Below, piece after piece: positions 881 to 35,626 of a stretch of DNA of 64,000 nt. The notes under the pieces were generated by a model that ran no database searches, had not been told where the DNA came from, and saw only the letters and a program-made list of their open reading frames with translations. Origin of the DNA: a virus; the IMG/VR virus record IMGVR_UViG_3300047509_000103, positions 1 through 64,000 of that record. The stretch is one strand, 5' to 3'. The position numbers and the translations under genes are program-made. Position 1 is the first letter of the stretch, and each line of letters starts with the position of its first letter.

Positions 881-1278
881 GGTTTGGCTTTGTGGATCTG
901 ATCTACCGTCGGCCACGATTCCGGTCCAGTGAAACGCACGGCCCTGTCATCCAAGTAGATAAGAGCTGCTGGCTTAGTTTTGGCCAGAGTTATGTCCTCA
1001 AGCCCGCGCGCACCGACGCACTCGAAGAAAGCGCCACCACCGTGCTCGTAGAGCCAGCGTCGAATCGCTCTGCGGCCGCGCCATGTCTTGCAGCGGGTCG
1101 AAAAGATGACGACCTCGAACTTGGCTAGCATCGTAATCAGCCACAAGATCGCGCCCGCCACGGGCGGATCGGGAATCGTATGGGCGTTTATCCATGGCGT
1201 CGTGTACGAATGCAGAACGCCATCGAAGTCAACGCATACCGTATACTTTTTTTCCTTCACAACATCACCTTTCTTCAT
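868..1278 (-). CDS. HAD-superfamily phosphatase-like phage protein
   Basis: DxDGV motif (VDFDGVLHSY) and YLDDRA; TGATG overlap with the ASCH gene stop. Confidence 0.75.
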   Translation of the reverse strand: MKKGDVVKEKKYTVCVDFDGVLHSYTTPWINAHTIPDPPVAGAILWLITMLAKFEVVIFSTRCKTWRGRRAIRRWLYEHGGGAFFECVGARGLEDITLAKTKPAALIYLDDRAVRFTGPESWPTVDQIHKAKPWNK

Positions 1279-1652
1279 CACCACGGTGAATCGACGTTGA
1301 AGAAACTCAGTTGGCCGCGGCATGGAACAAACGGCCGCAGCACAGGATTGCGCAGTACGAAGCCCCACTTGCCGAAAAACCAGGGCGAGCTAGAAACCGC
1401 TGCGCAATCGAGTATGTCGACCGTGCCTATCAGACCACCGCGATCAAGTTCCTTCGCCGGCGGTAGGACGATGGAAGGGAAGCGATCGGCAAGAAAGTCT
1501 TCGACTTCGGCGTACTCGCGCTTCGTCATACCGCCGGATGCGTGCACAGCAATCGTGCCGCGCACGTGCGTCGGCCAGTCACGATTCTCGACGTCTTTGC
1601 TGGCGTGCATGATCAGCCACGCCCACGGTTGCCGGATGGAGAGAGCTTTCAC
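1278..1652 (-). CDS. ASCH domain protein
   Basis: KALSIRQPWAWLI...KDVENRDW...IAVHAS motif; GTG start at 1652. Confidence 0.9.
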   Translation of the reverse strand: MKALSIRQPWAWLIMHASKDVENRDWPTHVRGTIAVHASGGMTKREYAEVEDFLADRFPSIVLPPAKELDRGGLIGTVDILDCAAVSSSPWFFGKWGFVLRNPVLRPFVPCRGQLSFFNVDSPW

Positions 1653-1654
1653 GA

Positions 1655-1861
1655 TCAGAAGAATTCCGGCTTCGCGACTGCGCGGGTGAGTGCCATCAAG
1701 CCCTGTTGCAGGTGCGTGGTGCCGATCGAGATCCACCGCTGGTCATAGTTTGGACCTCCCAAGGCGCCAACCAATTCAGCGAGTTCTTTGCCCGTCTCCT
1801 TGATTCGGTTGATCAGCGCAATTTCTTGCTCGTTCAACTCGCGATAGTGCTGGTTTTCCAT
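1655..1861 (-). CDS. acb2: Acb2-like anti-CBASS cyclic-oligonucleotide sponge (68 aa)
   Basis: MENQH-YRELNEQEIALINRIKETG...RWISIGTTHLQQGLMALTRAVAKPEFF matches the Acb2 pattern (NQH..YRDL..EI..MNR.KE.G / RWLAIG.T..Q.G.MA..RA.AQP..F); GGAGA RBS. Confidence 0.85.
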   Translation of the reverse strand: MENQHYRELNEQEIALINRIKETGKELAELVGALGGPNYDQRWISIGTTHLQQGLMALTRAVAKPEFF

Positions 1862-1874
1862 TGCATTCTCCAAA

Positions 1875-2345
1875 TAAGTGCAGGCGACGAACGGGGCAGC
1901 AAACGGGGAAGGAAAACCGCCCGCTCGCCGCCTGCGTGAAAGGAATTTTGCGTCCCGTATACGCCGGGACCACGCGGATTTTTTTGACTTGTCTGTCGCC
2001 ATGCGCTTTCGTGCGCCCGCCTGCAACGCTCGGCTTCTGCTAAGGCACGCCGAGACAGCCGTGTAGTTACGCCTACACATCGATCGAGTTCACTCCGCAT
2101 ATAGGCGCTGCAGTCACTCGACAAACCCGCCCACCTTCCGTTCGACGATCCATGTCGCATTCTTTGCACCGTCTGCCCGGGGCCACGGTGGTTCCTTCTA
2201 ACGCACGCGATCAATTGCCTATGCGGGAACCCTTCCCTCGTGGTGGGGTAGTGGCGCGAGCAAGCGGTCACACCTGTCAGGCCGGTTCTCTCGCGCAAGT
2301 ACAACCCGGCCGCTATGACTTCACTCCGTGCTGATGTCGCCACGG
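1875..2345 (-). ncRNA. Candidate structured non-coding RNA between rdgC and acb2
   Basis: ~470 nt with no convincing CDS, many stems, one with G-U pairs that form only on the minus strand (see findings). Confidence 0.55.
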
Positions 2346-3884
2346 TCAACCCCTCTCTGGTGTATTTTGCTGTTGAATTACGGTGCGTTTTCCTGCGTGG
2401 TCAGGCGCCGACACGACGCCTTGTTCTTCCATCGTTTCGACCAGCTGCGCGGCGCGGTTGTAGCCGATCTTGAACACTCGCTGGACGTAGCTGATCGACA
2501 CCGCGCCAGCTTCGCGCACTGTGGCGATCGCCTTGGGCAGCAAATCGTCCGCTTCGCCGCCGCCAAAAGAAGCCAGCACTTCGCCGGTGTTTCCATCCGA
2601 TACGGTGGCGGTGACGCCCTGCTCCTTGCAGAGCCGGTCCATTTTCTTCACGGCCGCATGCACCTTCGGTGACGCCGCCGGTGCGCTCGGCTCGGTCATC
2701 TCGACTAGAGCGGCGAGGATCCACAACGATGTGTAGCCAGCGTTCTTGCCGTGGTTTTCTTTCGCCAGTGCGATCGCCGCCTCGGTGTCAGTCGTGCCGT
2801 CTTTCTTCGCCCGCTTTGTGATCGCCGCTGCACTGCTGGCCATCGTCTCGTCGAACTTGTGCCCGAGGAATTCGCGCGCGGTCTTCCGTGCCTCGTACAT
2901 CTTGGCAGTGATACCGATCACCTTCTCCCACTTGCCAGTCGTCTCCGCATCCCGCATGTGCTTCGGCGCGTCACCGCCATCGAGCGTGAGCTTCGGCGCC
3001 GCGCTGACCCCGAACGTTGATGCCAGCCAGTCCAGCACGCGCCGCAGCTCGAGCGTCATCAGCGCGAACTGCGAGTCGAACAGTTCCGCGGTGCTCTCGG
3101 CATCGCCGAGTTCGTCCTGCACCACATCCAGGAACCGCACCTTGTGCAGGCACAGCGCCTCGTCGAGTACGAACGAAACCCGATCATCGAACACCAGCGC
3201 CAGGCGAAACACCTGCTTGCCCGATTTCAGGTGCTCGCGCACTTCGTCCGATTCCAAGTCCTGATTCGTGCAGCGGACAACGGCGCCGGTTTCGGCTGGA
3301 TCTCGCAGCTCAATCTGATCACCGAGCACCAGATGCTCAGGCAGCTTGCCGTTGATCACCCAGTCGGTCATCAGCGCGCGCGGTGATTCTTCCGGCGAGA
3401 GCGGCACGCAGGGGAACGAGCCGGCCGCTTCGCGGATCGACGAGATGATGTTCTCGGCAACCTTGCGTGTAGCGTGGTCGATCACCAGCCAACCGTCTTT
3501 CGTGAAATAGGCGTTGGTGCGGCGCGTGCGCACGAACGCCTGCGGCAGCAGTGTGGTGAACACTTCGTCTTTGATGCGCTTGCGTTCTTTCGCGCCGACT
3601 CCCACGCCCGTCGCCGCTTCGATCGCGTCGATTTTGTGCGCCAGCACATCGCGCACCACGTCGGCCGGAAGCAACCTTTCCTGCTGCGCCACGGTGATCA
3701 GTTTGAAGTCGCCGACCACGTGCGTGTATGAGTCATCGAACCCATGCACGGGCGGCACGAAGCCGAACGTCGACAGTTCGAGTGGGCCACAGTCGCGCAA
3801 GGCGTGCTTTGGCAACGCATCGCAGAGCGCGCCCAGATCAATCTCTTGGCCGAAGCGGTAGCAAGTTAGGTTGCGGAAGAACAT
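2346..3884 (-). CDS. rdgC: Recombination-associated protein RdgC with C-terminal FtsK gamma-like winged-helix domain
   Basis: MFFRNLTCYRF..GFVPP..ERLLPA RdgC core; C-terminal SISYVQRVFKIGYNRAAQLVETMEEQGVVS is the FtsK gamma signature. Confidence 0.92.
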   Translation of the reverse strand: MFFRNLTCYRFGQEIDLGALCDALPKHALRDCGPLELSTFGFVPPVHGFDDSYTHVVGDFKLITVAQQERLLPADVVRDVLAHKIDAIEAATGVGVGAKERKRIKDEVFTTLLPQAFVRTRRTNAYFTKDGWLVIDHATRKVAENIISSIREAAGSFPCVPLSPEESPRALMTDWVINGKLPEHLVLGDQIELRDPAETGAVVRCTNQDLESDEVREHLKSGKQVFRLALVFDDRVSFVLDEALCLHKVRFLDVVQDELGDAESTAELFDSQFALMTLELRRVLDWLASTFGVSAAPKLTLDGGDAPKHMRDAETTGKWEKVIGITAKMYEARKTAREFLGHKFDETMASSAAAITKRAKKDGTTDTEAAIALAKENHGKNAGYTSLWILAALVEMTEPSAPAASPKVHAAVKKMDRLCKEQGVTATVSDGNTGEVLASFGGGEADDLLPKAIATVREAGAVSISYVQRVFKIGYNRAAQLVETMEEQGVVSAPDHAGKRTVIQQQNTPERG

Positions 3885-3897
3885 GAGTTACTCCGAA

Positions 3898-4215
3898 TCA
3901 GAGCCGTGAAGCGGCGACGCGCATCTCGGCGGCTTGCTGGCGTTTTTCGTACGCCTGCTTGTGGCACACCTGCGCCTGCTCGTCGTACGATCGTCCGTGG
4001 TGGGATAACTGATTTGCCTCCCGTTCCAATTCGGTCGCCTGCTCAAGCAGCAACCATGGAGGCGAGTTTTCGCGGTACGGGTTGGCCGGATTGATTGTCA
4101 CCGTAGCTGCGCACTCATTGACGCCATCGCGCGCGAGTGATCCGCCAAGGCTACCGATCGTCTCTGTGGCGCGACGTGGCGTGATGCGGTCGGTTTTTTC
4201 GTCGTTTCCATTCAT
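3898..4215 (-). CDS. Hypothetical protein
   Basis: ORF starting MNGNDEK with GAGG RBS. Confidence 0.6.
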   Translation of the reverse strand: MNGNDEKTDRITPRRATETIGSLGGSLARDGVNECAATVTINPANPYRENSPPWLLLEQATELEREANQLSHHGRSYDEQAQVCHKQAYEKRQQAAEMRVAASRL

Positions 4216-4902: not shown

Positions 4903-5189
4903 GGTGGTTCCCTCAGCGGCAATGGCCCGCAGTGTTTGTATTCGGCCAATGGATCCTTCGCGAATTTGCCGTCGACGCGCAGCTTGACCATGTAGTCTCC
5001 GTCGAGCGTCCCTTCAGGCAAGCGCTCGTGCAGCTCGCGCATGAGGTCTACGAACTGCTCCTGCCACTCAATCGGCATTGAGCACAGCGCTCGGCGCGCC
5101 ACGACCAGATAACTTGCGTATGTGAGGCCGAATTCGTTCCACACAGGACCGTCTGCGTACTCTGGGCGATAGCCGATGTCTTCGCTCAT
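4890..5189 (-). CDS. Conserved phage hypothetical protein
   Basis: FGLTYASYLVVARRALCSMPIEWQ; overlaps both neighbours. Confidence 0.75.
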   Translation of the reverse strand: MSEDIGYRPEYADGPVWNEFGLTYASYLVVARRALCSMPIEWQEQFVDLMRELHERLPEGTLDGDYMVKLRVDGKFAKDPLAEYKHCGPLPLREPPCAD

Positions 5190-5953
5190 GGTGTCGCTCG
5201 CTTAAAAGTGAGAACCCAGATCCACGGGTTGCTATCCCATAACGCGCGCTTGGCATTGATCGAATCCCACAATTTCTGGAAGTCATCGCGTTCAGCCTTG
5301 CAGCCCTTTTCGTTGCAATCAGAACAGCCATCTGGCCCATAGCAGAATCCGTTCAGCGGCTTGATGCCTTCCGCTATTGCATCATCGGCGCTGATGTCCT
5401 GCAGCCGCTGAACGCGCACGTCGGTGATCTCAAGCGTGAGGCGTGAGGCCCATCGGTGCATGTGGATGGCGGTTACGGTTTTGCCAAACCGCCCGACGCA
5501 GTGCTCGTAGATCGGATGTGGATATTTCCACTCGCTCAGTGAGCGCTTTGCTTCGTCGGCTTTGTAGACGAGAAAATCTTCACCAGGCTCGGCTTCGGCC
5601 ATCACGCGCGACATCCAACGCTGATAACGCGCACCGTCTTTCGGCCTGCTACTCTCGTTGGAGCGCGGCGTGTGCCAGTCCTTTGGGCGATCAGGCTGTT
5701 CCCAGTATGTCGTCGTCTCGCGCACCCAGAGCCGATCACCTGGCTCGCCGTAAGGGCAACTTAGGTCCATGTAGTCCAGCGTGTCCGGATTCTTAAAGAA
5801 GTTTCCAGGATCGCCTGCCACCACAGTACCCATGTATTCGGTGAACGGTTCACGCAGCTTGATCAAGCGCCGCGTTTGCGTTTTGCTGCCGTCGAGCAGT
5901 GATCTGACCATCGGCGCCGAAAACAATATTGGTCTTTCCTTCACGGCGTTCAT
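5186..5953 (-). CDS. Phage ASCH/PUA-like protein
   Basis: KERPILFSAPMVR.LLDG.KTQTRR, CPYGEPGDRLWVRET, IHM.RWASRLTLEITDVRVQRLQDIS, NPWIWV. Confidence 0.85.
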   Translation of the reverse strand: MNAVKERPILFSAPMVRSLLDGSKTQTRRLIKLREPFTEYMGTVVAGDPGNFFKNPDTLDYMDLSCPYGEPGDRLWVRETTTYWEQPDRPKDWHTPRSNESSRPKDGARYQRWMSRVMAEAEPGEDFLVYKADEAKRSLSEWKYPHPIYEHCVGRFGKTVTAIHMHRWASRLTLEITDVRVQRLQDISADDAIAEGIKPLNGFCYGPDGCSDCNEKGCKAERDDFQKLWDSINAKRALWDSNPWIWVLTFKRATP

Positions 5954-6192
5954 AGCGACCGCACCCGATCAATGACGGCCGCCGCCGAGAGTCTGGAAAA
6001 TGTCCAATCCATTCCCTTGTACTCATCGCTGAAAGCCAGGTCGTGAACGAAGCAATACAACTCGATGTTCTCAAGCGCCAGGCGTTGCGCCGTTCGCCGC
6101 TGCGCGCACGCGCACGTGAACAGCATGAGGAACGCGCCGATCACGAGGCCCAGGGCGAACGCGATGTAGAGCGGAGTCAGGGATGGGTTCAT
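5950..6192 (-). CDS. Small membrane protein
   Basis: N-terminal TM helix, 4-bp overlaps. Confidence 0.6.
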   Translation of the reverse strand: MNPSLTPLYIAFALGLVIGAFLMLFTCACAQRRTAQRLALENIELYCFVHDLAFSDEYKGMDWTFSRLSAAAVIDRVRSL

Positions 6193-6763
6193 CGACCTTC
6201 TCTCATGCCGTCTCGAATAGCGTTGCTGATCGCCGCTGATCCAGTGCAGCCGTACTTATCGCTGTCGCCCATAAAATCAGCGATTCGCTTCATGCTGACA
6301 GCGATAGAAAACAAGGCGCATTGCTCAGGGGAAAAATTCGACATTGCGAAAGCTGACGGTTCCACAAAGTCAAATACATTGTTCGTCTTGTTGATCATGG
6401 TCCACTCCACGTGCCAGGAGGCGCAAACAACGACACCAATACGAGGGCTAGCGCAGTCAGCCCGATCGCGATCAGCTCGAAGCGCGTTGCGAGAGAGCCG
6501 AGGTCTTTCATGCAGGCACGCTCCAGCAGAAGAACAGCAGCGCGAGAAATAGCCACGCGATGGTGCGCAGCGCGCCAGGCGTGAGTTCAACGCCACGCAT
6601 GTCGCTGCAAACCTGTGATAGAAGCGAGTACGCGCCATACAGGCCGGTGATGTACGAGCACCACAGAAAGATGTGCTGTAAGCTCAAGCTCATGGCTTCA
6701 TGCACCAGCCGAGCAACACAACCAGCGCACAGATCACAACGACGTAGAGAAGGGTGCGCGGCT

Positions 6764-8498: not shown

Positions 8499-9241
8499 GC
8501 GCGTCGCACCGATAGGCCTTTGTCCTCGTACACGCGCACGCCAGGGATTCGCGTGGCACCCTTGAGTGAGCGCACAACGCCACCGATAGCCTGGTTCTCT
8601 TGCAGGTAGCCGAGCAGCGTGTCGTCGCCAGCCTCGGCCGCTTTGCCGGCGGCGATTACCAGCGCCTTGAAGTCGGTCACTTCGTACTTCCAGGTCGAGC
8701 GTGAGCCGATGCCGGCAGCCTTCGGCGCTGCGACCGTCGGCATCGAAACCGGCGCCACTTCGGCGAGCTCGATCGCCTCGCGCGCTGCTTCGACGCCGGC
8801 GACGTCGCCAGACTTCGCCGCCTCGGCTTGCTGCTTTTCGAGCGTTTCACGTGCGGCGCGCGCGATGGCTTCGGCCGCGCGCTTTTCGTCGTCAGCTTTC
8901 TTCTGCTGATCCCGTTGGAAACCGAGCATCGCAGCGCGTAGCGCGTTCTCCGCGTTCGCCATTATCTCATCGGGACCGCGAAACATCTCCATGATGCGCG
9001 ACTTGCTCTCGTCGAGCGGTCGCGTCAGGCTCTTGCGCAATTCCTCCATGTCCTTGCGGCGCGTGGAGATGTTGCGTAGTTCGTCGCCAGCGATGGCATA
9101 CATGTCCTGACTGTCGACGACGATGCTCAGCGCAATCGTGCGCGACTCCGTGGCCATAGCGTTCGCGCGCGCGAGCTCGGGAAGCGACAGCGCGGTTGAG
9201 CCTGGTGCCGGCTCTCCGGCTGGCATAAGTTGTGCGTTCAT
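8495..9241 (-). CDS. Phage coiled-coil protein of the recombination module
   Basis: Long helical ORF ending IPGVRVYE, between exonuclease and ssb. Confidence 0.75.
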
Positions 9242-9867: not shown

Positions 9868-10769
9868 GCCGCGTTTGCCTTGTTGTTAGCCATCTCGCGC
9901 AGTTCGGCCAGCACCGCATTGAGATTGCTCAAGTCGATGCGGTGGTACTTCGCGATAAGCGCCTTCTCGTCGAGCCCGACGCTCTGCGCGCGCGCCTTGA
10001 GGATCGCCGCCTGAGAATCGCTCAGGTTGTGCAGACCTTCGGGCAACGTCTTGACATCGACCGCCGGCTTGTCCGCTTCCGGCTTTGCCTTCGCTTTCGG
10101 GTCGCTGAACGTCGCATCTTCGGCGGGCGCCGCGGTCGGTGTTGCTGCCGGCGTCGGTGTCGCAGCAGCTTTCGCCGTCGGCATCTGCACGACTGTTGCT
10201 GTGGCTGTTGCCGGCTCGTCGTCGAACTCGTCTGGCGTGTAGATGCCGAGCAGAGCTTCTGGAGCGTAACGGCGCGCCCATTGGCGCGTGCCGCGGTAGA
10301 CAAGCATGTCCTCGGGAATCTTGTCCCAGGCGTTGTCGACGCGGTTACCTGCCTTGTCCTTCCCGTATGTACGCCACTCTTTGACGGCGCCGGTAACCGT
10401 CTGCGGCTCGCCGTTGCCGCCCCGCGGTACACCAGTGACCTTGATCGAGGCGCCGGCCCCGCTACCAGTGATCTCGTAGTGCAAGCGCCCGTCGATCGCG
10501 CCCATGCTGTAGAGCACTGCGGCGACGAGCTTGCCTTCGTAGCAAAGGCGCTTGTGCACCACGCTCGTGCACTGCGCGACGCTGAGCGCATCCATACCCC
10601 AACGCTGCGCCTGCATCACCACGAGCAGGCAATCGCCTGGCTTGTTTTGCAGGTGCTCCGGTATCAAGCTCGATTTCGCCAGCGTCTCGGCCAGCTGCAC
10701 CGCTTCGGGCACAGAGCGCGGCACGAGTGCCTGCATCGACGTCGTTTGTTGCGTAGCTAGTTCACCCAT
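9864..10769 (-). CDS. RecT-like single-strand annealing recombinase
   Basis: LIPEHLQNKPGDCL.VVMQAQRWGMD, W...PEDML.YRG.RQWARRYAPEALLGIYTPDE. Confidence 0.88.
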   Translation of the reverse strand: MGELATQQTTSMQALVPRSVPEAVQLAETLAKSSLIPEHLQNKPGDCLLVVMQAQRWGMDALSVAQCTSVVHKRLCYEGKLVAAVLYSMGAIDGRLHYEITGSGAGASIKVTGVPRGGNGEPQTVTGAVKEWRTYGKDKAGNRVDNAWDKIPEDMLVYRGTRQWARRYAPEALLGIYTPDEFDDEPATATATVVQMPTAKAAATPTPAATPTAAPAEDATFSDPKAKAKPEADKPAVDVKTLPEGLHNLSDSQAAILKARAQSVGLDEKALIAKYHRIDLSNLNAVLAELREMANNKANAA

Positions 10770-20033: not shown

Positions 20034-20145
20034 CCCTCTTCGACCTACGCCACTTCTGTGAATCCCACGTGCCGTGGTGGTCACCGCTGATCGTTGCAGC
20101 GTCAATTATCGCGATCGTGCTGTACGTGATGTGGAGGGCAGGGCG

Positions 20146-20601
20146 GTGACGGACGAAAGGAAAGTCGATTCGCTTGGCCGATCGTATATCAGCCGAAAGA
20201 AGTTGCGACCTTGCGCTCAGTGCGGCGACCAGATTAAACGCAAGGGCACCGCCGTTAAGTATTGCTCGCGTAAATGCTACGGCACCGCGGCTGCTGGCGT
20301 CCCGAAACCACCTGAACAGGTAGCGGCCAGACAGGTTCCGCGCGGCGACAAGCATTGGGCTTGGAGTGGTGCGTCTGTTAGTGAAAAGGGCGGCAGAGCA
20401 CGCGCGCTTAGGCAGTACCGAAGCGCTGGCCGTTGTTCGCGTTGCGCCGCCACGCGCGGCGAGCGGCACCACAAAGACGGGAACACCGCGAACAACGACA
20501 CGTCGAACGTCGAGATCCTGTGTCGCCGTTGCCACATGGAGGTGGACGGTCGTCTCGCACTGCTGATTGCTAACCCAGGCAAAGGGTGTGTATGTCCGTG
20601 A
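20146..20601 (+). CDS. HNH endonuclease
   Basis: C..C, YCSRKC, HHKDGNTANN..SNVEILCRRCH. Confidence 0.85.
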   Translation: MTDERKVDSLGRSYISRKKLRPCAQCGDQIKRKGTAVKYCSRKCYGTAAAGVPKPPEQVAARQVPRGDKHWAWSGASVSEKGGRARALRQYRSAGRCSRCAATRGERHHKDGNTANNDTSNVEILCRRCHMEVDGRLALLIANPGKGCVCP

Positions 20602-24902: not shown

Positions 24903-25384
24903 GCCAGCTACTGCTGTGCGCACTGCATCGCCGTGGCAAGCCGAGCACGGCCGGCGACATTCACGAGACCGCGCTCGGCCTGGCGATGAATGCTGGCTGG
25001 CCGCGATCGGAATGGCCGACCAACCCGAAGCAGGTGGCAGCGCTGCTTAAGGGGATGATCAAAGCGGGGGATGTGATGCAGGTTGATTGCAGCCGAGAAA
25101 ACGGCCGCGACGTGCCGATGTTTCAACCGATCTGCGGCGCTGGTTTCGACTCGGAGTACGAGATGCCGGATCCGCCGGCGAAGCCGAAGAAAAGCGACCT
25201 GGATGGAATGACCAAACCCCAGATCTACGCGCTGGTCGACGTGCTCGAAGCCCTGGTGCACGAAGGCGCGCGGCAACGGCGCGAGCTCGGCTCACTGTTG
25301 GTCCGCCAACTGGAAGAGTTCGAACGCACCACCGAGCGCGCCAAACGCCAGCTACTGGCTGCCGGCATCGAGGGCAAGCTATGA
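24899..25384 (+). CDS. Hypothetical protein
   Basis: ATGA overlaps. Confidence 0.65.
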   Translation: MSQLLLCALHRRGKPSTAGDIHETALGLAMNAGWPRSEWPTNPKQVAALLKGMIKAGDVMQVDCSRENGRDVPMFQPICGAGFDSEYEMPDPPAKPKKSDLDGMTKPQIYALVDVLEALVHEGARQRRELGSLLVRQLEEFERTTERAKRQLLAAGIEGKL

Positions 25385-33179: not shown

Positions 33180-33212
33180 AATTCAGATGCGGGACACATT
33201 TGCACAAAACAC

Positions 33213-33241
33213 TTGACAGCGCGCTCGCAAAGGTTCAATTT
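33213..33241 (+). promoter_or_regulatory. Candidate late promoter (pR'-like)
   Basis: TTGACA at 33213-33218 with a weak -10, about 70 nt before a terminator. Confidence 0.45.
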
Positions 33242-33308
33242 CCCCATCCGGGATAAGAGGTAAACTCCCTCTACGTCCGCACACATTTGAATTTTTTACG
33301 ATCAGATG

Positions 33309-33339
33309 AGGCCCGCCAAGCGCGGGCCTTTTGCTTTTT
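33309..33339 (+). terminator. tR'-like terminator
   Basis: AGGCCCGC-CAAGC-GCGGGCCT-TTTGCTTTTT. Confidence 0.8.
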
Positions 33340-33439
33340 CCTGCCGCCCATATTGTCTGTCCTTCGGCAGAGACCTGGCCCACTGCGTGATCAGGCCGGT
33401 CTATTCGATTCACCCCGCAGCGGGCTCCAGACGGAATAC

Positions 33440-33560
33440 ACCTAGCAGCGCCGAGTGGCGCCGCGTCCCAATCGAGCGTTGTCTGGTACGGTGCGCAAAT
33501 TGCCATCGTCGCAAAACGGCTCGTGAATTAGGTTGGTTTAGAGGTTCAAAAGCCGCCTGA
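33440..33560 (+). pseudogene. C-terminal remnant of an HNH endonuclease
   Basis: IERCLVRCANCHRRKTARELGW with no N-terminal part. Confidence 0.55.
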
Positions 33561-33651
33561 TCCGAGGATACGCCGGGCGCCTTGTAACCGAAGCGCCCCG
33601 TCATTTTCAGGTCTGGCGACAACCGCGCCGACACCACAATCAGGAGTCACC

Positions 33652-34359
33652 ATGTCACGCACACCACCCGTACCCGCTATTGCACCCGAGTTCGACACCG
33701 TCACAGGCTGGGATAAGCACCCAAGCAAGGTTGGCGGTCTTCGCAACCGATTCGTCGCCGAAGCAATCGCTGACATCGCGGCCGCCGGCTCACCCGAGAT
33801 TGCAGCACACATCCCGCCGATCACCGTGGGCCGGTTCCTGATCGCGCCCGACAGCGGCACCAGCCTGCTCGAGCCGGATCTGGAGCGCTATCAGGTGCCC
33901 GACGCGGCGCAGGCGGCAGCCCTTGGCCTGACGGCGCAAGACCTTGTCCAGATTCGCGATAACCTGCGCCTGCTCAATGACTGGCAGGTATCCGTGTTCA
34001 AGGAGTCTGGCAAGTACGAAAGCAAGCCGCAGGACACCTACCGTGGCGAAGCCGGCCGCAGTGGATTCCCGAAGTACGTGCCGATCATGCAGCCGAAGTT
34101 TGGCCCGGACGGCAGCCCGGTCATGGCGACCATCTCGCCCATGGAAGCGGCACTCCAGTGGCAGTTCTACCACGCTTGTGTCGCCGAAGAGCAGACGAAT
34201 TGGGCTGGCCAGACGTATCTGGCCCATGGCCCCATCCAAGGCGATCACTTCGTCGCCGACTCGTGGTTCGATCTGCGCGACGGTCGCAACCTCGCGCGCT
34301 ACTACCGCAGCTGGGCCATCTCGTTCGGCGTCGACATCGATCCCGAACCGTCCACCTGA
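33652..34359 (+). CDS. Hypothetical protein, first late gene
   Basis: AGGAG RBS, 235 aa. Confidence 0.8.
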   Translation: MSRTPPVPAIAPEFDTVTGWDKHPSKVGGLRNRFVAEAIADIAAAGSPEIAAHIPPITVGRFLIAPDSGTSLLEPDLERYQVPDAAQAAALGLTAQDLVQIRDNLRLLNDWQVSVFKESGKYESKPQDTYRGEAGRSGFPKYVPIMQPKFGPDGSPVMATISPMEAALQWQFYHACVAEEQTNWAGQTYLAHGPIQGDHFVADSWFDLRDGRNLARYYRSWAISFGVDIDPEPST

Positions 34360-34362
34360 CTT

Positions 34363-34503
34363 GTGAGCGCCGCGGACAGCCAATGGTGGTTATGGGTAGG
34401 TATTGCCATGGCCATCATTGTCCCGGCGCTTTGCGGTTTGTTTTACCTGCATTGCCGCGAGAAGCGGCTCCAAGTCGACGAAAGCGACGCTGCAGGATGT
34501 TGA
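34363..34503 (+). CDS. Small single-TM protein
   Basis: My translation: VSAADSQWWLWVGIAMAIIVPALCGLFYLHCREKR... Confidence 0.45.
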   Translation: MSAADSQWWLWVGIAMAIIVPALCGLFYLHCREKRLQVDESDAAGC

Positions 34504-35416: not shown

Positions 35417-35626
35417 ATGAAAGCGGAAAACTTCTGCTTCTGGCTGCAAGGCTTCTTCGAGCTGACAGACCCGAAGCAAGTGACACCCGAACAGGCCGAG
35501 CAAATCAAGACGCATCTCGCGCTTGTGTTTCAGCACGATCCGGCGATGGCGCACAAAGCGCCACCGCCAATTCCGGTGCTGGTGCCGCACCGCACTCCCG
35601 GCCGCGAACCAGTGCTGTTCTGCTGA
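35417..35626 (+). CDS. Hypothetical phage protein
   Basis: NFCFWLQGFFEL..Q...IK.HL.LVF. Confidence 0.75.
   Translation: MKAENFCFWLQGFFELTDPKQVTPEQAEQIKTHLALVFQHDPAMAHKAPPPIPVLVPHRTPGREPVLFC

Follow-up and report, generated by a model that had tools for sequence, protein, structure and literature searches.

Early mRNAs of T7-type phages carry RNase III processing hairpins between genes, and the promoter-early stem-loop cassettes of T4-type phages are mosaic-boundary or regulatory cassette sequences. Intrinsic (Rho-independent) terminators usually have a stem of 5–14 pairs and a loop of 3–8 nt. The region compared with these systems here is a 485-nt gap upstream of the anti-CBASS gene acb2 in a virus. 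The DNA analysed (the window) is positions 1 to 64,000 of an 80.8-kb IMG/VR virus record. The gap had been described in an earlier note as a densely structured non-coding element. We find that the gap, 1862–2345, is truly non-coding, and our preferred reading, which we hold tentatively and at not quite even chances, is that it is a composite spacer of three parts rather than one RNA machine.

Gene order and coding potential

On the minus strand, the order is rdgC-ftsK-gamma (3884..2346), the gap, acb2 (1861..1655) and an ASCH-domain gene (1652..1278). The features of the region and the metagenome contigs that match it are listed in Table 1. The position of the gap directly upstream of acb2 is real, as it runs from the rdgC-ftsK-gamma stop codon (TGA, 2348–2346) to the acb2 ATG at 1861. 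Its description as the largest gap in the operon is correct locally, but the window contains other uncovered stretches of 470–570 nt. A rough codon-score gene call for the whole window left 6193–6763, 20034–20585 and 33180–33651 uncovered, and these may be non-coding gaps or genes with atypical codon use.

Table 1. Features of the rdgC–acb2 region and metagenome contigs aligned to it
Feature	Positions	Strand	Remarks
rdgC fused to FtsK gamma domain	2346..3884	-	512 aa; Pfam RdgC E 2e-93, FtsK_gamma E 1.9e-22; PHROG 724
Block A, conserved non-coding core	2241..2367	-	127 nt; matching contigs in several metagenomes
Linker	2192..2240	-	2240–2228 kept in longer variants; 2227–2192 is a variable hairpin
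Block B, second conserved piece	2164..2191	-	X2 and X4 contigs align to 2165 and 2164, respectively; hairpin CACCGT/ACGGTG
Spacer	1941..2163	-	non-conserved; small hairpins at chance level; z -0.81; codon scores negative
Strong hairpin	1880..1935	-	20 pairs, 15-nt loop, -38.7 kcal/mol
U-rich tail ACUUAUUU	1872..1879	-	directly after hairpin; 5 T in 8 bases; read from sequence
acb2 Shine-Dalgarno, GGAGAA	1866..1871	-	4 nt before ATG; read from sequence
acb2	1655..1861	-	68 aa; Pfam Acb2_Tad1_hairpin E 7.6e-18
Contig, run X3 record 9	2241–2367		2 differences
Contig, run X4 record 20	2244–2349		2 differences
Contig, run X5 record 26	2241–2335		0 differences (95/95 bases)
Contig, run X2 record 7	2165–2365		3 differences and 24 deleted bases
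Contig, run X4 record 19	2164–2360		11 differences and 24 deleted bases

The RdgC part of the fusion is 54–58 % identical to proteins of Dyella and Rudaea, an identity from which we take a member of the Xanthomonadales to be the probable host. Fusion of RdgC to the winged-helix FtsK gamma domain is a common phage architecture, and both Pfam domains were found in many of 1162 matches. The closest RdgC relative, P0002 (68 % identity), has approximately 170 additional Cys-rich residues beyond the gamma domain; the possibility that the gap is a remnant of this longer C-terminus was rejected after comparison with P0002. A complete 62.8-kb IMG/VR virus, L116, includes both an rdgC-ftsK-gamma gene (53 %, 5001–6239) and an ASCH gene (53 %, 10295–10654). 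As approximately 4 kb of other genes, without acb2, lie between them, the rdgC-to-ASCH stretch is a variable region. Searched at an E cut-off of 0.001, the 80.8-kb record gave no match to Phage_integrase (PF00589) or Resolvase (PF00239). Because neither domain was found, and because the gap matched nothing in 401 genomes of one order or in pattern scans across GTDB, a role as a phage attP was rejected.

Six aligned homologues with the N-terminus MENQH support ATG 1861 as the start of acb2. An N-terminally extended Acb2 was rejected because the homologues start at MENQH and the extension has a non-coding GC pattern. At 68 aa, this Acb2 is the shortest of the seven aligned (the others are 74–134 aa). 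It lacks the five residues directly after MENQH and has the shortest central loop, and its C-terminal LMALTRAVAKPEFF is intact in the alignment.

With 30 long ORFs of the window as its training set, a codon model scored the gap negative in all three minus-strand frames, and the GC content at codon position 2 is 0.60–0.64 in the gap, compared with 0.35–0.48 in real genes. The 171-aa ORF at 2349..1834 (ORF171) has GC contents of 0.56/0.62/0.60 by codon position (about 0.62/0.46/0.72 in real genes here), with no Pfam or PHROG match. An exhaustive HMMER search of 1.84 billion protein representatives returned only two matches for ORF171, namely P0121, which is annotated by JGI as a 'hypothetical protein' of 103 aa and occurs on two contigs, and one repetitive, low-complexity protein. 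Nor did the 70-aa translation of frame 0 find anything in a word-index protein search.

The match to P0121 starts at 2367, inside rdgC but in a different frame. Residues 2–32 match frame 0 at 2367–2275, residues 33–46 match frame 2 at 2267–2226 (12/14 identical, E 3.5e-5), and residues 59–68 match frame 0 at 2193–2164. As the homology crosses frames 0, 2 and 0, the conservation is at the nucleotide level and not at the protein level. P0121 differs from the window by a 7-nt indel at 2274–2268 and by further indels, and hence no ORF on either strand spans the element in both copies; we note that back-translation yields only two thirds of the nucleotides of P0121. The earlier note had named conservation of the 1834–2349 reading frame, in place of base pairing, as an outcome that would speak against its view; the reverse was found, as the frame is not kept in P0121, the sole distant homologue. 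The codon scores, the non-genic GC pattern and the lack of a Pfam or PHROG match bear out the view that the gap is non-coding.

Two further coding features were examined. A 37-aa Cys-containing ORF at 2186..2073 was rejected, as its GC pattern is 0.65/0.59/0.54 and its RBS lies within a segment deleted in run X2. Residues 68–92 of ORF171 (2146–2087, minus strand) resemble the repeat unit GLASDCVSCHRSEFD of P0122, a 409-aa repetitive protein. The library-wide E value is 5e-4, the CxxCH motif is not kept, and this resemblance is probably due to chance.

A conserved block at the end of rdgC

Besides the probable source sample, seven runs contain 5–8 % of the sampled 31-mers of 1650–2650. Four of these runs, from four studies (soil, freshwater, soil and watershed), were aligned on 1200–4000. 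All four yielded contigs at the same place, 94–100 % identical to 2241–2367 or 2164–2365, these contigs being short (151–473 nt) and of low depth (2–5). Positions 1858–2139 were covered by none of the four runs. Beyond the block, the contigs continue into sequence unlike that of the window, and the borders recur, at 2365–2367 on one side and at 2241–2244 or 2164–2165 on the other. Three contigs diverge at 2241–2244, and two others continue to 2164.

Block A starts 20 nt before the rdgC stop, so that the final seven codons and the stop codon of rdgC-ftsK-gamma fall within it; the minus strand is the sense strand of the operon. In runs X2 and X4, the linker hairpin is reduced from 36 nt to 12 nt. 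The block is kept better than the adjoining gene in run X5, where pieces of rdgC (records 30 and 31) are approximately 85–88 % alike, compared with 95 of 95 bases in the block. However, recent exchange, and not constraint, could be the reason why the copies of the block are nearly identical.

The earlier note had proposed asking whether relatives of the gap stay linked to acb2, and no such link was found. Neither similar DNA nor a comparable gap was present at 14 IMG/VR acb2 loci, where the neighbouring upstream gene ends 10–135 nt away. Nor is the block linked to rdgC generally, as no similar DNA was found at 78 IMG/VR rdgC loci. A large gap after rdgC was also rejected as a general feature, since the downstream gene abuts rdgC in most of the 78. 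Searches with the gap using blastn, nhmmer and tblastx against 122 loci (29 genomic rdgC/FtsK, 14 acb2 and 78 IMG/VR rdgC loci) found nothing, and no related loci turned up when viral, genome and metagenome contigs were queried with ORF171 or P0121. Scanning IMG/VR and GTDB genomes for exact and degenerate patterns gave no true copy of the block; a single match in Actinokineospora proved on closer inspection to be due to chance. Among genome contigs, the best rdgC match came from Vulcaniibacterium gelatinicum; BLAST searches of 401 genomes from its order found nothing, and there was no copy of the block in the whole records of five related viruses or in cultured phage and plasmid collections. 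No RNA run was found to contain the stretch. A template repeat of a DGR, or another shared repeat, was rejected because no 14-mer is common to the gap and the rest of the window.

The predicted fold of block A is a rod-like hairpin that spans 2353–2245 and nearly fills the conserved core. The 24-nt deletion in X2 and X4 shortens one predicted hairpin from within, and the enclosing helix stays in the fold of the whole element. This fold and the pattern of deletion fit an RNA domain, without proving one. As block A and the whole element fold at the level of shuffled sequences on both strands, an RNA structure lacks energetic support.

We regard as unlikely the alternative that the block works as DNA, either as a mosaic boundary or linker for the swapping of accessory genes, or as a site bound by a phage or host protein (for example an operator, an unusual promoter, or a replication or packaging signal). 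In its favour, the borders of the block are sharp and recur in several metagenomes next to dissimilar flanks, and the downstream content varies beyond 2241–2244 or 2164. It is also consistent with the folding of block A, which gives no thermodynamic signal (z -0.68 on the minus strand and -0.34 on the plus strand) and no strand asymmetry (-44.0 versus -44.5). However, a promoter scan found no sigma-70-like or promoter-like site, there are no iterons or repeats, and no sub-motif of the block recurs in the 64 kb beyond chance. In addition, the block is single-copy in the 80.8-kb record. The sequence GGGAAGGG (2237–2230, minus strand), just past the conserved core, fits the FtsK-orienting KOPS consensus GGGNAGGG. 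A KOPS site for the FtsK gamma domain was rejected, as the eight sites in 64 kb represent no enrichment; judging from the back-translation, GGGAAGGG also appears to be absent from P0121.

It is rather improbable that the gap is functionless, that is, decayed or filler DNA in which the block was spread recently by horizontal transfer and the hairpin before acb2 is incidental. The block has no structure signal, belongs to no known family and has no homologues in the large catalogues searched, which speaks for this explanation. Nevertheless, the block is more conserved than an adjacent, essential-looking gene in the same run, and the divergent P0121 copy is still approximately 90 % identical in blocks despite the indels. 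A hairpin as strong as that before acb2, and stable only on the sense strand, is also unlikely to arise by chance.

Folding of the gap and the hairpin before acb2

The motifs listed in the earlier note are all present in the positions given there, but the density of structure is no greater than chance. The whole gap folds like its shuffles (z values of -0.64 and -0.49 on the minus and plus strands, respectively), which does not support a densely structured element of approximately 470 nt. The z value is -0.81 for 1941–2163 and +0.10 for 2164–2367. The gap is approximately 60 % G+C, and most of the listed hairpins, though seen in the minimum-energy folds, are at chance level. The loop GCGCGAG (2296–2290) is complementary to CTCGCGC (2260–2254), as proposed for a pseudoknot. 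A proposed long-range helix, in which CCGCATAGGC (2226–2217) would pair with GCCTATATGCGG (2106–2095), is possible as far as complementarity goes, but two metagenome variants have lost or replaced the stretch that contains its 5' arm. The repeat CGGAGTGAA does occur twice, at 2328 and 2097, although by our own estimate (roughly 0.5 expected) a 9-mer found twice in 485 nt is close to chance.

A search of the 64 kb, which the earlier note had recommended, found no Rfam family match at gathering scores. For the riboswitch, ribozyme, intron, sRNA and tRNA/tmRNA families of Rfam 15, every family scored below its gathering score, and with lax filters and E values up to 10 only miRNA noise appeared (13.9–19.1 bits, compared with cut-offs of 58–100). 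A tRNA or tmRNA remnant was rejected, as ARAGORN finds neither. In the generic energy test for structured ncRNAs, the gap, the element, block A and the spacer all failed, and only the 3' hairpin passed.

This hairpin includes the 15-bp stem (1935–1921 with 1894–1880, two G-U pairs) that the earlier note had placed before the acb2 RBS. The stem can be read directly in the sequence and is strand-specific, as expected for an RNA hairpin. On the minus strand, the z value for 1935–1880 is -6.4, with none of 200 shuffles as good. On the plus strand, where the G-U pairs turn into C-A mismatches, the energy is -27.3 kcal/mol (z -1.85), which is weaker by approximately 11 kcal/mol. When about 11,600 windows of 66 nt from the two strands of the 64 kb are ordered by strength, the hairpin comes fifth. 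Its end lies 18 nt ahead of the acb2 start, and the sequence continues with ACUUAUUU, then GGAGAA (the RBS, which begins 8 nt after the stem), then the acb2 ATG.

From its sequence, 1935–1872 looks like a terminator or a processing hairpin. A terminator scan left it uncalled, as the rule needs a loop of 3–8 nt and the loop here is 15 nt; neither a loop of this size nor an interrupted U-tract is typical of intrinsic terminators. Moreover, acb2 would have no promoter if termination only 18 nt ahead of it were complete. Elsewhere in the window, a hairpin at 34365–34430 (plus strand, -39.5 kcal/mol) lies 6 nt after the stop codon of the ORF at 33651–34359 and is followed by a T-rich tail; it is likely to be a terminator built like 1935–1880. 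Further very strong hairpins are found at 35531–35596, 24927–24992 and 8735–8800.

It is very improbable that the whole of the approximately 470 nt is one structured ncRNA or riboswitch coupling translation of Acb2 to a signal of the cyclic-nucleotide type. Such a role would suit a non-coding gap directly upstream of acb2, with a strong RNA hairpin ending 8 nt before the RBS. However, a single structured RNA is contradicted by the absence of any thermodynamic excess over the whole gap and by conservation that is limited to the first 127–204 nt, with the middle 220 nt neither conserved nor structured. In addition, the Rfam cyclic-dinucleotide riboswitch families have no match even at E values up to 10, the 14 acb2 homologues lack such an upstream region, and the proposed long-range helix uses a segment deleted in variants.

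Finally, it is hardly credible that the block is the first part of a small-protein gene in the ORF171/P0121 frame, coupled to the rdgC stop via TTGA and with GAGAGGGG 6 nt before GTG 2343. In favour of such a gene, frame 0 is uninterrupted, P0121 was annotated as a gene by JGI, the 24-nt deletion in X2 and X4 preserves the frame and the GC content at codon position 3 of the block is 0.72. However, the homology with P0121 leaves frame 0 after residue 32 and resumes in frame 2, the GC content at codon position 2 (0.60–0.65) and the codon scores are not those of a gene, no family matches, and the conserved stretch starts ahead of every start codon in the window.

Interpretation and comparison with known systems

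Our preferred reading of the gap as a three-part spacer is as follows. The first part, 2367–2241 (extending to 2164 in some lineages), would be a modular non-coding element kept at the nucleotide level and situated at the upstream boundary of a variable accessory region, which here carries acb2. We consider it most likely that the conserved block at this edge has a function as a non-coding module. We infer that transcription of the rdgC operon probably includes the block, which would act as an RNA domain and could be a cis-acting leader, a 3'-UTR element or a small RNA; action at the RNA level is a possibility that we would put a shade below an even chance. The second part, 2163–1941, would be unconstrained filler. 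The third, 1935–1872, is a long G+C-rich hairpin with a U-rich tail that, to judge from its strength and strand asymmetry, most likely ends or processes the upstream rdgC transcript, acting either as an intrinsic terminator that is leaky or as a site of the RNase III type. Expression of acb2 would then come only from read-through or processed RNA and be limited or shaped by the hairpin.

A bolder version, which we consider improbable, is that block A is the core of a new family of phage ncRNAs in soil and freshwater phages, in which nearly every base matters and which marks the entry to a swappable anti-defence cassette. Such an RNA might, for example, be a decoy for a host defence protein or drive the polymerase past the strong hairpin into the anti-defence genes. 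If the block is a functional RNA, it would be an unclassified phage ncRNA beside an anti-CBASS gene and would offer a handle on the timing or gating of anti-defence genes in uncultured soil phages. If it is instead a recombination linker, it would show a route by which accessory cassettes such as acb2 are exchanged. At present, it is a well-delimited conserved non-coding element with a putative function, accompanied by a probable terminator or processing hairpin. It is useful for annotation and is a candidate for a study of covariation, though not yet a discovery.

The resemblance to cyclic-dinucleotide riboswitches is confined to position, upstream of a gene that handles cyclic nucleotides. 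There is no Rfam match at any threshold, 380 nt separate the block from the acb2 RBS, and at other loci the block shows no linkage to acb2. Unlike the T4-type cassettes, the block is single-copy here, is far longer (127–204 nt) and has no recognisable promoter, but, like them, it is a short conserved non-coding sequence beside a region of varying gene content.

The hairpin before acb2 differs from intrinsic terminators in its longer stem (20 pairs) and larger loop (15 nt), and in a U-tract that is interrupted (ACUUAUUU). With the next gene 18 nt further on and no room for a promoter, any termination would be partial. However, like intrinsic terminators and attenuators, it is G+C-rich, is stable on the sense strand only, is followed at once by a U-rich stretch and stands at the end of an intergenic region. 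Compared with the RNase III sites of T7, the stem lacks their typical internal-loop architecture. As in T7-type phages, a stem of approximately 20 bp lies between cistrons, just upstream of a gene for host takeover or anti-defence.
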